Shown here: piece by piece, positions 5,801-57,140 of the stretch
Layout of the letters: every line of letters starts with the position of its first letter
Position numbering within the stretch: position 1 is the stretch's first letter
From: Candidatus Komeilibacteria bacterium
GTDB taxonomy: Bacteria; Patescibacteriota; Patescibacteriia; UBA1558; 2-01-FULL-52-15
Length of the DNA: 57,502 nt
Assembly: GCA_043801745.1 (NCBI GenBank)
Contig: JAZDLR010000025.1
Location: 1-57,502, forward strand
Direction: 5' to 3'
Translations under genes and position numbers: made by a program
The notes under the pieces: model-generated
Databases searched by the model: none
What the model was told of the DNA's origin: nothing
The model's input: only the letters and a program-made list of their open reading frames with translations

Positions 5801-5878
5801 GAATTAGCTTGTAGCTGGTAGCTTCGTAGGGACTGGCCAATTAACTACAACCTAACCCCTAATTCCTAATTCCTAACC
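5798..5878. repeat. 7-nt-periodic intergenic repeat (TAGCTTG/TAGCTGG; CCTAATT/CCTAACC)
   Basis: Tandem heptamers; the 20-mer at 5805-5824 is identical to 36964-36983. Confidence 0.75.
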
Positions 5879-5879
5879 A

Positions 5880-6416
5880 ATGAATTGTCCGGTTTGTAAT
5901 CATGCAGATACTAAAGTTGTAGATTCCCGTATTACCACTGATACCACGGGAATCAGGCGTCGCCGTGAATGCGTCAAGTGCGCATTCCGTTTTTCAACTT
6001 TGGAGGAAGTCGAGCTTCTGGATATGATGATTGTTAAACGCGATGGTCGGCGGCAGCCGTACTCACGGGATAAGTTGGCCCAAGGTTTGCGTAAGAGTTT
6101 GGAAAAGCGTTCTTATACGGAAGATCATTTTAATAATTTACTGCACCGGATAGAGCGCGATATTCAGAAAACCCGCAAAAGTGAATTGACCAGCAAGGAA
6201 GTAGGCGAGATTGTGATGAAACGGCTTAAGCGCTTTGATGAAATTGCTTATATCCGTTTTGCCTCGGTTTACCGGTCGTTTACTGACGCCGCCACCTTTA
6301 AGCGCGAGTTGGAAGGTATGCTGCCTGCCCGACTCGGCGCGTCTTCGCGGGCGGGCGGGCCTGCCCGCCAGCAGCTGCGCCGTCAGGCGGTGGCCGGCAG
6401 GCGAAAGAAACGATGA
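5880..6416 (+). CDS. nrdR: Transcriptional repressor NrdR with in-frame palindromic insertions near the C-terminus
   Basis: CPVC...RRRRECVKC Zn ribbon, ATP-cone, AYIRFASVY. Confidence 0.97.
   Translation: MNCPVCNHADTKVVDSRITTDTTGIRRRRECVKCAFRFSTLEEVELLDMMIVKRDGRRQPYSRDKLAQGLRKSLEKRSYTEDHFNNLLHRIERDIQKTRKSELTSKEVGEIVMKRLKRFDEIAYIRFASVYRSFTDAATFKRELEGMLPARLGASSRAGGPARQQLRRQAVAGRRKKR
6324..6401. repeat. Two tandem palindromic modules (36 nt + 42 nt) inside nrdR
   Basis: CCTGCCCG...CGGGCGGG and CCTGCC...GGCAGG; both lengths are multiples of 3. Confidence 0.8.
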
Positions 6417-6470: not shown

Positions 6471-6755
6471 ATGGACGAAGAGATAAAGAAAATATTAGAT
6501 CAACAAAGTCAAGATCTGGCGGACATTAAAGTCCAGCTGGTCAAGATCCGCCGGCATTTTGTCTGGGAACAAGTTTGGTCGGTGGTTAGGATTTTGCTTA
6601 TTGTTGTTCCGCTCATCGTTGCCTATATTGTGTTGATGCCTATGTTACAACAAGCCTTAGCGCAATATCAGGATTTGTCTTCTTCGCTTAAGAATCCCGC
6701 CGGCGGAAATAACCTTAATTTACAAGACTTGATCAATCAATATCAACTCAAATAA
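6471..6755 (+). CDS. Small membrane protein, hypothetical
   Basis: 94 aa, coiled-coil plus one TM helix, TATAAT upstream. Confidence 0.75.
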   Translation: MDEEIKKILDQQSQDLADIKVQLVKIRRHFVWEQVWSVVRILLIVVPLIVAYIVLMPMLQQALAQYQDLSSSLKNPAGGNNLNLQDLINQYQLK

Positions 6756-9178: not shown

Positions 9179-9532
9179 ATGAAAAGTGATATGCCCGCCA
9201 GAGGCGGGTCGCCCTATGGGCGAAAAAGCGAATATATAACTAAAGATTACTTTGATGCCGCTATGCGTGAGTATACGTGGGATATTATTGGGCATTTTAA
9301 TAAAAGTCAGGCTGAACAGAATAAACGCGTTGATAAATTGGAAATAGAGTTAAAGAAAGATATTAATGGTTTGAAAGAAACTGTTGATAGCCTAAAAACT
9401 GATGTTAGCTGCATTCAGGAGGTTTTAATGGATTATATTAATACTGATAAAACCGTCGTGACTCTGGTTCATGAACTGGAAGATGATCATCATTTAGCTT
9501 TACCAAAGACCGGAGCCTTATTGGCTAGATAG
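9179..9532 (+). CDS. Small coiled-coil hypothetical protein (start uncertain: 9152, 9179 or 9191)
   Basis: ITKDYFD N-terminal motif; similar to the next gene. Confidence 0.65.
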   Translation: MKSDMPARGGSPYGRKSEYITKDYFDAAMREYTWDIIGHFNKSQAEQNKRVDKLEIELKKDINGLKETVDSLKTDVSCIQEVLMDYINTDKTVVTLVHELEDDHHLALPKTGALLAR

Positions 9533-10800: not shown

Positions 10801-10957
10801 ACCTCACCCCCGCCCGCAACGCCTGAGCGTAGCAATGGCGGGCGGGCCAACCATCTCCTTGAAAAGGAGAGGGAGGAAGTGCTCCTAAATATCGTCCCTC
10901 TCCTTAATAAGGAGAGGACAGCCTGCCCGCCGAAGCTTTAGCGAAGGTGGGTGAGGT
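10801..10957. repeat. REP/MITE-like composite repeat, copy 1
   Basis: Ends ACCTCACCC/GGGTGAGGT, internal CTCTCCTT...AAGGAGAG hairpins, nested palindromes. Confidence 0.85.
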
Positions 10958-16093: not shown

Positions 16094-16226
16094 ACCTCAC
16101 CCCGCCAGAGGCGGGCAGGCTGTCCTCTCCTTCTTAAGGAGAGGAACGTTGTTTATATGGCTCGTCGCTCTACTTAACCTCCGTGCGCTCTCCCTCTCCT
16201 TTTGAAGGAGAGGGTTGGGGTGAGGT
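16094..16226. repeat. REP/MITE-like composite repeat, copy 2
   Basis: ACCTCACCCC...GGGGTGAGGT with CCTCTCCTT...AAGGAGAGG hairpins. Confidence 0.85.
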
Positions 16227-23187: not shown

Positions 23188-23333
23188 ACCTCACCCACCT
23201 TCGCTAAAGCTTCGGCGGGCAGGCCTGTCCTCTCCTTCAAAAGGAGAGGAACGATATTTATATAGTTAGTCGCTCCTTTTCCATTTACCGCGCTACCTCC
23301 CTCTCCTTTTCAAGGAGAGGGTTGGGGTGAGGT
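23188..23333. repeat. REP/MITE-like composite repeat, copy 3
   Basis: Same termini; 23194-23223 is the exact reverse complement of 10922-10951. Confidence 0.85.
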
Positions 23334-36996: not shown

Positions 36997-37350
36997 ATGA
37001 AAGATAAGCAAATTATCAAGAAAACTATTGCCCAGCGCCGGGCTCGCCGCACGCGTGCTAAGGTAGCTGTTAGTGGACGCCCTCGTCTGTCGGTTTTTCG
37101 CAGTCTTAAACATTTATACGCTCAGATTATTGATAAAGATGGTCAGGTGTTGGTTGCTGCCCGTAGTCAGGAGATTAAGGATAAAGTGCTTAAAGGAGTG
37201 GCTCTGGCCGGAGCAGTGGGCGAATTGATTGCTGTCAAAGCTAAGGCTAAGAAGATCGAGATTGTTGTTTTTGATAAAGGTAAATTTAAATATCACGGGC
37301 AAGTAAAAGCCGTAGCTGACGGTGCCCGTAAGGAAGGATTACAATTTTAA
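36997..37350 (+). CDS. rplR: 50S ribosomal protein uL18
   Basis: RPRLSVFRS, YHGQVKA. Confidence 0.98.
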   Translation: MKDKQIIKKTIAQRRARRTRAKVAVSGRPRLSVFRSLKHLYAQIIDKDGQVLVAARSQEIKDKVLKGVALAGAVGELIAVKAKAKKIEIVVFDKGKFKYHGQVKAVADGARKEGLQF

Positions 37351-37351
37351 T

Positions 37352-37963
37352 ATGGAAGCACAAGCACAACAACCAATGAGATCCGGCGGACCGGAGCGTG
37401 GTCAGCGTCCGGGTATGCGCCGTGGCCCGTCGCGTGGCGGCCGTGGTCAGCGTCCGGAGCGTGAACGTGACGAGTTTGATCAGAAAATGATTGACTTGGC
37501 CCGGGTTACCCGTGTCATGGCCGGCGGCAAGCGTATGCGTTTCCGTGCCTGTATTGTGGTTGGTGACCGCAAAGGTAAATTGGGCTGGGCTTTGGCTAAA
37601 GGCAGCGATGTGTCTCTGGCTATTAATAAAGCAGTAACCAAGGCCAAGAAGCATTTAATTACGGTCCGTAGCGTCAAAGGCACTATTCCTCATTCCTTGG
37701 AAGTTAAATATAAGGCTGCCCGGATTCTCTTTAAACCGGCTAAGCTAGGTACCGGTATCAAAGCTGGTGGTGCTGTACGGCAAGTGTTAGAATTATCTGG
37801 TATTGAGAATGTCTCGGCCAAGATCATTGGTTCCAGCAATAAGATCAATAATGTTCACGCCACCTTTAAGGCTTTGAGTAGTTTAAAATATGGTCAGCTG
37901 GATGAAGCGACTGAAAGCGCCAAGCGTGAAGCTAGAGAGCGGACTAAATCAGAAAAGAAATAA
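37352..37963 (+). CDS. rpsE: 30S ribosomal protein uS5
   Basis: RVTRVMAGGKR, GTGIKAGG; RG-rich N-terminus. Confidence 0.99.
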   Translation: MEAQAQQPMRSGGPERGQRPGMRRGPSRGGRGQRPERERDEFDQKMIDLARVTRVMAGGKRMRFRACIVVGDRKGKLGWALAKGSDVSLAINKAVTKAKKHLITVRSVKGTIPHSLEVKYKAARILFKPAKLGTGIKAGGAVRQVLELSGIENVSAKIIGSSNKINNVHATFKALSSLKYGQLDEATESAKREARERTKSEKK

Positions 37964-56922: not shown

Positions 56923-57140
56923 AATCATTCTGTTCCCCGCCCACAATAATTGAATCAAATGAGGGCGGGTCTTCACCACAGGCGGACAGGCGCCTCTGGC
57001 GGAGATTCCCCGCCTACACCCTTCGCTGCCGCTTGGGTTTCGGCGGGCAGGCAGGTCTCGGAGCCAACAAAAGAACAGCTTTGATTAGCTGTTCTTTTGT
57101 CTGACCACAAGTGAGAATCCAACTATGATATACTTAGGCT

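Follow-up and report, generated by a model that had tools for sequence, protein, structure and literature searches.

Palindromic elements that invade proteins in frame are, to our knowledge, textbook matter only for Rickettsia, where they measure ~150 bp, and for organelles. The yeast gene var1 is an example of the invasion of a gene by mitochondrial GC clusters, and the small dispersed repeats (SDR) of cyanobacteria are very small palindromic mobile repeats, which the elements reported here resemble by description. In the summary given in PMC10969869, Rickettsia palindromic elements (RPEs) are ~150 bp long, fall into ten families, and frequently form in-frame fusions with host ORFs. REP and BIME sequences are presented in PMC3116915, which also cites the cyanobacterial SDR, as imperfect GC-rich palindromes of 20–40 nt that are mostly extragenic and often clustered or nested, and that insert into or beside existing copies. 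Organelle hairpin elements, including the yeast mitochondrial GC clusters, the double-hairpin elements of Allomyces, and those of sponges and placozoans, are 10–100 bp long, GC-rich, and regarded as mobile in the outline of PMC7813641. Finally, the abstract-level account in PMC11893778 describes Ssn as GIY-YIG single-strand nucleases that are tied to dispersed NTS/SRM repeats and modulate transformation. A literature search at the abstract level returned no account of comparable repeats for Patescibacteria or for the candidate phyla radiation.

In this study, we analyzed a stretch of 57,502 nt (hereafter the window) on contig JAZDLR010000025.1 from Candidatus Komeilibacteria bacterium (GCA_043801745.1; hereafter G000), a metagenome-assembled genome of 1.09 Mb in 26 contigs with 45% GC and 98.8% completeness. 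Its nrdR gene contains a block of two complete, small, GC-rich hairpins of dispersed repeat families, which are very probably non-autonomous selfish DNA inserted in frame. Two congeners, G001 and G002, were used for close comparison.

A 78-nt palindromic block in the C-terminal tail of NrdR

The protein encoded by nrdR has the N-terminal Zn ribbon and ATP-cone of its class. Both domains scored above the Pfam cut-off (Zn_ribbon_NrdR, PF22811, 5.7e-18; ATP-cone, PF03477, 1.3e-20), and PDB NrdR chains matched it at E 1.8e-36. The features of the gene are as follows.

5880–6416, + strand: nrdR, intact ORF of 178 aa (ORF list, Pfam), Zn ribbon at 1–42 and ATP-cone at 49–136
6324–6359, + strand: module 1, full-length copy of the 36-nt family, CCTGCCCG...CGGGCGGGCGGG, encoding PARLGASSRAGG (codons 149–160)
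6360–6401, + strand: module 2, full-length copy of the 42-nt family, CCTGCC...GGCAGG, encoding PARQQLRRQAVAGR (codons 161–174)
6402–6416, + strand: original basic C-terminus RKKR and stop codon, pushed 26 residues downstream by the insert

The translation contains PARLGASSRAGGPARQQLRRQAVAGR followed by RKKR and the stop codon; read from ...RELEGML, it continues with PARLGASSRAGG, PARQQLRRQAVAGR, and RKKR. The initial annotation had described two tandem palindromic modules on codon boundaries in the NrdR C-terminus, and this description was accurate: the 78-nt block at 6324–6401 is composed of a 36-nt and a 42-nt palindrome, placed head to tail between codons 148 and 149, just past the last ATP-cone helix, and adds 26 residues after the ATP-cone. 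Because the block starts 444 nt (3 × 148) into the gene, both modules begin at codon boundaries. The borders of the block are ambiguous by 1 base on either side (G...C), and the right arm of module 2 has three positions unlike the usual ...TGGCAGGCGGG end. The GC content was 0.75 at 6300–6399, compared with 0.45 genome-wide.

Folded as single-stranded DNA, module 1 reached −12.8 kcal/mol (z −2.6), which was equaled by 2 of 200 shuffles, and the whole 84 nt reached −30.9 kcal/mol (z −2.0; 5 of 200 shuffles). Module 2, at −12.3 kcal/mol (z −0.8), was equaled by 42 of 200 shuffles and is unremarkable by energy. The pattern CCTGCC-N15-45-GGCAGG matched once in the window against an expectation of 0.12, and at least one match occurred in 12 of 100 shuffles. 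In addition, because the termini are common to both modules, the two in tandem can alternatively form a single long hairpin centered on the junction, and the division into two modules therefore required independent support. It is membership in repeat families that sets the block above chance.

Homology to solved NrdR structures stops at residue 144–146, and in the AlphaFold model of NrdR the last helix spans 137–147, with pLDDT values of 46–53 over 151–178 compared with 86–92 in the ATP-cone. The end of homology and the low pLDDT values together place the insert in a variable, probably disordered tail. The ORF downstream of nrdR begins at 6471. Just upstream of nrdR, positions 5820–5879 contain short-period CCTAAN-type repeats (...cctaacccctaattcctaattcctaacc), and the 12-mer CCTAATTCCTAA occurs 13 times in G000; many palindrome copies in relatives are flanked by similar 6–7-nt tandem arrays.

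Both modules belong to dispersed repeat families

The 84-nt block was compared by BLAST with 86 genomes of the order, G000 included, and the matches ended exactly at the module borders (query 3–40 and 39/40–81 of 84). The segment corresponding to module 1 (query 3–40) was found at two further places in G000 (87–94% identity) and in the congeners (89–95%), with four copies in G001, two of which form a tandem pair (G001:C2:10911/10953), and two copies in G002. Module 1 shared 31 of 33 bases with an intergenic copy at G000:C3:33065–33097 (E 2e-8) and was 95% identical over 38 nt to the G001 copies (E 4.6e-11). Module 2 (query 39/40–81) matched five genomes of other genera (G039, G006, G031, G010, and G047) at 79–84% over 42–43 nt, and G000:C1:67669–67709 at 80%. 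The aligned copies measured 36 nt in eight of nine cases for the 36-mer family and 42 nt in all nine for the 42-mer family, and nhmmer aligned both profiles to the nrdR block over their entire lengths (36-mer profile 1–36, E 2.9e-9; 42-mer profile 1–42, E 6.4e-9).

Profile searches of G000 found five copies of the 36-mer, of which one is in nrdR, three are intergenic, and one borders the end of a gene call, and two full-length copies of the 42-mer (nrdR and one intergenic); a further match to the 42-mer profile, inside a gene call, was partial and weak (E 0.087). Copy numbers are low, at 1–6 per genome. Among 400 other sampled Patescibacteria genomes, 12 contain the termini pattern of the 42-mer; of its 21 copies there, 13 measure exactly 42 nt. 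The reversed control of this pattern gave no match in these 400 genomes. As far as searched, the 36-mer family is confined to the genus; the 42-mer family is patchy through Patescibacteria.

The two families have the termini CCTGCC(C)G...GGCGGG in common. In the 36-mer, compensatory changes are seen at two inner-stem pairs (3/9 and 1/9 copies), and the alignment of nine 42-mer copies contained no compensatory pairs. At stem position 3, 8/9 copies of the 42-mer and 7/9 copies of the 36-mer retain a T-G wobble. Both modules are members of dispersed families with sharp, conserved ends, patchy spread, and clustering beside or inside other palindromes.

Some copies in other genomes have distinctive surroundings. 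Among the 42-mer copies in L096, L102, L104, and L110, one has 14-nt direct-repeat flanks (AACTTTGAATTTTG), and those at L102, L104, and L110 lie between inverted flanks, as if inserted midway in a larger palindrome. A 36-mer-like core, CCCGACTCGCTGCGCTTCGCAGGCGGGCGGG, has four letter-for-letter matches in L047–L050, in two MAGs labeled Gammaproteobacteria, with ctaagttc-type flanks like those at G000:C4:4956.

An empty site and the history of the nrdR insertion

The NrdR ORFs of 29 relatives are 150–168 aa long, and the block was found in none of them. In a large protein search, the closest NrdR (P0001) is 153 aa long and shares 93.2% identity over its first 147 residues. Its end, ELEGML-RKKRR, is at the protein level exactly the predicted empty site; the other relatives end in K/R-rich tails. 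The expectation that NrdR would have a normal length without the block was thus borne out, and the alignment with close relatives that had been suggested as a check showed that the block is not conserved. A metagenome scan for the DNA of the P0001 and P0002 nrdR genes returned only relatives with at most 65% identity.

Two further NrdR proteins have inserts at the same codon boundary. That of G001 (P0003) has a different 42-nt insert, encoding STRQGLRPKVSASG, and P0002 has a 13-aa insert, SARRRLRPQLATG. The left half of the G001 insert retains a CCCGCCA.GGCTT.CG core, and only 31 of 5000 shuffles aligned as well with the canonical 42-mer. The three insert peptides have x-A/T-R-x-x-L-R-x-Q/K...A/G in common. 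Given this decayed 42-nt copy in G001, the 42-nt module probably already occupied the site in the genus ancestor, and the block would then not represent two fresh tandem hits. The 42-mer would have entered the nrdR site before G000 and G001 split and would later have decayed in G001 and P0002; the neighboring 36-mer would be a later addition in the G000 lineage. In a tree of 148 NrdR core residues, the genus clade was supported at 98/97 and the pair of G000 and P0001 at just 82/68, so that several orders of gain and loss are compatible with it: a precise loss of the insert in P0001, a divergence of P0001 that preceded the gain, or two separate insertions at the site.

In-frame copies and turnover in other genes

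A third palindrome was found in radA of G000.

G000:C21:7200–7238: 39-nt palindrome in radA, in frame, perfect arms, GC-rich

It adds 13 residues right before the conserved (E/D)xGS motif of RadA. This insert was missing from all 10 aligned relatives; 13 relatives had near full-length matches, and L044–L046 were left out of the alignment. The 39-mer represents a third dispersed family: of the 85 other genomes of the order, 13 contain copies of 78–98% identity. The radA copy is its only copy in G000.

Comparison of the congeners showed differences of the same kind. The M23 peptidase of G002 (291/432 residues identical to the G000 ortholog) has 12 extra residues derived from a 36-nt copy of the 36-mer, none of which are present in G000, and a G002 spacer contains a copy where the orthologous spacer of G000 is empty. 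Congeners therefore differ in whether a family copy is present at an orthologous site.

In other Patescibacteria, 5 of 29 examined copies of the 42-mer sit in long open frames, and Pfam confirmed four of the five hosts as radical SAM, MnmA, RNase J, and MsrB proteins. The SelR domain of the MsrB protein spans 129 residues against 115 profile positions, that is, 14 extra residues. Four of the five coding copies are read on the strand opposite to that used in nrdR and in one phase (ARLPxP...GGQ), and the fifth is in another phase; the nrdR copy is read on the sense strand. This variation in strand and phase indicates that there is no single obligatory frame. A bias toward lengths divisible by three in coding copies, for which a test had been suggested, did not emerge: the 42-mer copies had such lengths in all 5 coding cases and in 18 of the 24 others. 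Divisibility by three is a property of the families, whose canonical lengths are 36, 42, and 39 nt, and no extra bias of coding copies is demonstrable.

Other hairpins in the window and the genome

The initial annotation had also claimed that the same termini occur in intergenic repeats elsewhere in the window, and they do. The sequence CTGCCCGCC occurs 23 times in G000 and five times in the window (6361, 10923, 16110, 23214, and 57042), and the four occurrences outside nrdR are all in spacers. The corresponding hairpins are the following.

10922–10956, + strand: spacer hairpin, left terminus CCTGCCCGCC ... GGTGGGTGAGG, adjoining a CTCTCCTT/AAGGAGAG hairpin
16095–16119, − strand: minimal spacer hairpin, CCTGCCCGCC-TCTG-GCGGGGTGAGG
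23189–23223, − strand: spacer hairpin of the type found at 10922
57008–57051, − strand: hairpin in the spacer downstream of a tRNA gene, terminus CCTGCCCGCC

G000 also contains 19 copies of a separate family, a 30-nt double hairpin of the type GCCC-ACA-GGGC-x-GCCC-TGT-GGGC, including those at the following sites.

Window 9190–9222: 30-nt double hairpin
G000:C20:80250–80277: 30-nt double hairpin
G000:C3:45640–45671: 30-nt double hairpin

Some of its copies lie in open frames that we take to resemble TruB (RPEGDRPVAE) and an IscU-like protein (RPQGDPPLAEG). At G000:C6:69233–69314, the second hairpin of a double-hairpin copy is split by another GC palindrome, forming a nested insertion. A GC-rich imperfect direct repeat at 37383–37461, within the ORF at 37322–37963, encodes an Arg/Gly-rich stretch, QRPGMRRGPSRGGRGQRPER. 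Scans of coding regions for hairpins and GC islands were tried as a census of inserts and dropped as too noisy; several of their top matches are presumably ordinary conserved motifs (UvrB, the RsmH C-terminus, and the PRTase motif).

Possible modes of movement

The proposal that a mobile palindrome adds new peptide to proteins is supported by the repeat families, the empty site in P0001, the turnover between congeners, and the in-frame copies in other genes. As non-autonomous selfish elements, they would be copied to new sites either by a factor supplied in trans or through recombination. Within genes, only a stop-free insert with a length divisible by three, in a tolerant loop or tail, would survive; the added Pro/Ala/Arg/Gly-rich peptide would be a by-product, and NrdR would stay functional.

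Profile searches of G000 for four Pfam families, PF01797 (Y1/RAYT), PF07282 (TnpB zinc ribbon), PF01609 (DDE_Tnp_1), and PF00665 (rve), gave no matches; the controls were positive, and PF01797 was found in 6 of 14 reference genomes. A consistent target-site duplication is not evident: the nrdR and radA inserts are without a repeat beyond 1–2 ambiguous bases, and some spacer copies have 6–14-nt direct repeats, but these lie within tandem arrays.

G000 contains two DUF559 genes and nine small stand-alone GIY-YIG ORFs, whose open frames measure 87–134 aa.

GIY-YIG ORFs in G000: C20:110928, C26:7298, C26:1306, C23:17093, C21:1841, C17:8243, C20:29498, C6:117683, and C9:2

Comparison with the lists of GC islands showed that seven of the nine GIY-YIG ORFs have a GC-rich hairpin island within ~180 nt upstream, and the hairpin ~100 nt upstream of one of these genes has a 15-nt core in common with module 1. 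A DUF559 (Vsr-like) nuclease gene (67908–68219) is bracketed by GC hairpins at G000:C1:67669–68388; one of them, ~200 nt from the gene, is the other full-length 42-mer of G000. In other genomes, profiles made from the G000 genes detected no GIY-YIG or DUF559 ORF within 700 nt of 34 copy loci, and 2 of 18 examined DUF559 loci had a 42-mer copy within 1.5 kb, which is suggestive at most. Since the Ssn family of GIY-YIG nucleases is tied to dispersed repeats, an Ssn-like nuclease as the mover may be considered a reasonable lead, and we offer it only as such. Template switching or recombination at the hairpins is an equal candidate.

The latter leads to the alternative that the elements spread by recombination rather than transposition, through template switching at hairpins, gene conversion, or transformation by foreign DNA that contains a copy, with no dedicated enzyme. 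With 1–6 copies per genome, slow turnover or recombination fits as well as active transposition. The negative search for the four transposase families agrees with this alternative, as does the clustering of copies beside or within other palindromes, seen in a tandem pair (G001:C2:10911/10953), a nested copy (C6:69233), and inverted flanks (L102, L104, and L110), and the 39-mer, found only in radA in G000 yet present as 78–98% copies in relatives, suggests import or rapid loss of the donor. The very sharp borders, conserved across families of the order, are more typical of ends defined by an enzyme, and we regard a purely recombinational spread as possible, though on the unlikely side.

A far-reaching reading, which taken as a whole we consider rather doubtful, would make these elements a phylum-wide Patescibacteria superfamily of the smallest known protein-invading mobile elements, moved by a hairpin-specific single-strand nuclease whose gene lies elsewhere in the genome. 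They would be palindromes of 30–42 nt with canonical lengths that are all multiples of three and with CCYGCC...GGCGGG ends, and the mover would be a small Ssn-like GIY-YIG or DUF559 enzyme that acts by insertion or precise excision at preferred sites. Under the same reading, the reuse of the nrdR boundary (empty, 39, 42, and 78 nt in four close lineages) would reflect site-specific targeting or clean excision, and the elements would continually supply the proteins of these reduced genomes with loop and tail peptides.

Alternative explanations for the block

The hairpins might instead be a selected cis-element, kept at the 3′ end of nrdR for an action on the transcript or DNA, with an incidental peptide, and this would be compatible with a mobile origin. 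Candidate roles are protection of the mRNA 3′ end, attenuation before the ORF at 6471, or a protein-binding site, with the spacer copies acting likewise. The block is located 14 nt ahead of the stop codon, several spacer copies closely follow the 3′ ends of genes (that at C3:33065 is ~33 nt past a stop codon), the compensatory changes of the 36-mer preserve its inner stem, and the retained T-G wobble hints at strand-specific use. Against this, no T-run follows the block, coding copies occur in the middle of genes in either orientation, and the nearest NrdR manages without the block. Rfam at the gathering threshold detected nothing in the window beyond two tRNAs, and its E-value mode at 11 loci gave only sub-threshold matches (whalefall-1 at 21 bits, the best, at another locus, with a cut-off of 37; NsiR4 at 20.8 bits with a cut-off of 40). 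We therefore judge selection for a cis-acting role to be improbable.

A repeat-induced misjoin or a collapsed repeat that placed a hairpin in nrdR is conceivable in a metagenome-assembled genome of 26 contigs with dispersed repeats. Such an artifact is, however, very improbable, given that the frame is preserved and the original RKKR and stop codon directly follow the block, that its copies are identical to no other copy in G000 (best, 94%), and that G001 and P0002, which are independent assemblies, have inserts at the same codon boundary. A vertically evolved, low-complexity extension of NrdR that looks palindromic through its GC-richness would suit the variable NrdR lengths of relatives (150–168 aa, and up to 194 aa in a wider search) and the folding of module 2, which is no better than that of GC-matched shuffles, but is hardly tenable beside the near-identity of module 1 to spacer copies on another contig and in G001, the border-to-border match of module 2 with spacer elements of 42 nt from other families within the order, the closest NrdR without the block, and a GC content of 75% in a 45% GC genome.

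Comparison with described elements

Insertion of two dispersed hairpin repeats into nrdR is closest in behavior to the RPEs, and the analysis supports calling the block RPE-like, three to four times shorter. As described in PMC10969869, RPEs are likewise dispersed palindromes in spacers and in frame in unrelated housekeeping genes of a reduced genome, and the protein is not destroyed. The G000 repeats are palindromic, dispersed, and in frame in unrelated protein genes; by description, they are set apart by their size (36, 39, and 42 nt rather than 100–150 bp), by their GC-richness in a 45% GC genome, by far fewer copies, and by their occurrence in Patescibacteria rather than in the Rickettsia lineage with its defined RPE sequence families. 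The comparison made in the initial annotation, RPE-like but much shorter, is thus apt.

In size, shape, mostly extragenic location, and clustering, the elements resemble REP sequences: four of the five 36-mer copies of G000 are outside gene calls, and G001 has a tandem pair. Unlike REP/REPIN systems, G000 has no RAYT detectable with PF01797; there are in-frame copies in genes, and most copies are singlets, not inverted doublets. The resemblance to organelle hairpin elements lies in their size, GC-richness, and proliferation in both spacers and protein genes of small genomes and in a repeated occupation of sites that is likewise debated, according to PMC7813641; those elements, however, are mitochondrial and belong to unrelated sequence families, whereas these are found in free bacterial genomes of a phylum. 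The terminal inverted repeats expected of a MITE are present, with conserved stems CCTGCCCG/CGGGCGGG and CCTGCC.CGCCA/TGGC.GGCGGG, and no related transposase with matching ends was found in G000 among PF01797, PF07282, PF01609, and PF00665. The likeness to the Ssn system consists of the small stand-alone GIY-YIG ORFs near GC-rich islands in G000, one of which shares the 15-nt core with module 1. It is limited by the lack of a nuclease ORF within 700 nt of the 34 copies elsewhere and by the description of Ssn, in the abstract of PMC11893778, as a modulator of transformation and not a mover of repeats.

Implications

What is new, and supported by these data, is the existence of RPE-like in-frame invaders of 36–42 nt, without a recognizable transposase among the four families searched, in free bacterial genomes of Patescibacteria, a large uncultured phylum of ultra-small bacteria. 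Their hosts include core enzymes and a regulator: NrdR, RadA, MnmA, RNase J, and MsrB. For annotation, this means that a GC-rich insertion of unexplained origin in a protein from these organisms is a repeat and not a lineage-specific domain, and for phylogenomics that such inserts should be masked in alignments. Because no transposase of the four classical families searched was found in G000 and small hairpin-associated nucleases are abundant, the system may lead to a new mechanism of mobilization. For protein evolution, the elements offer a path to new surface loops in reduced genomes.
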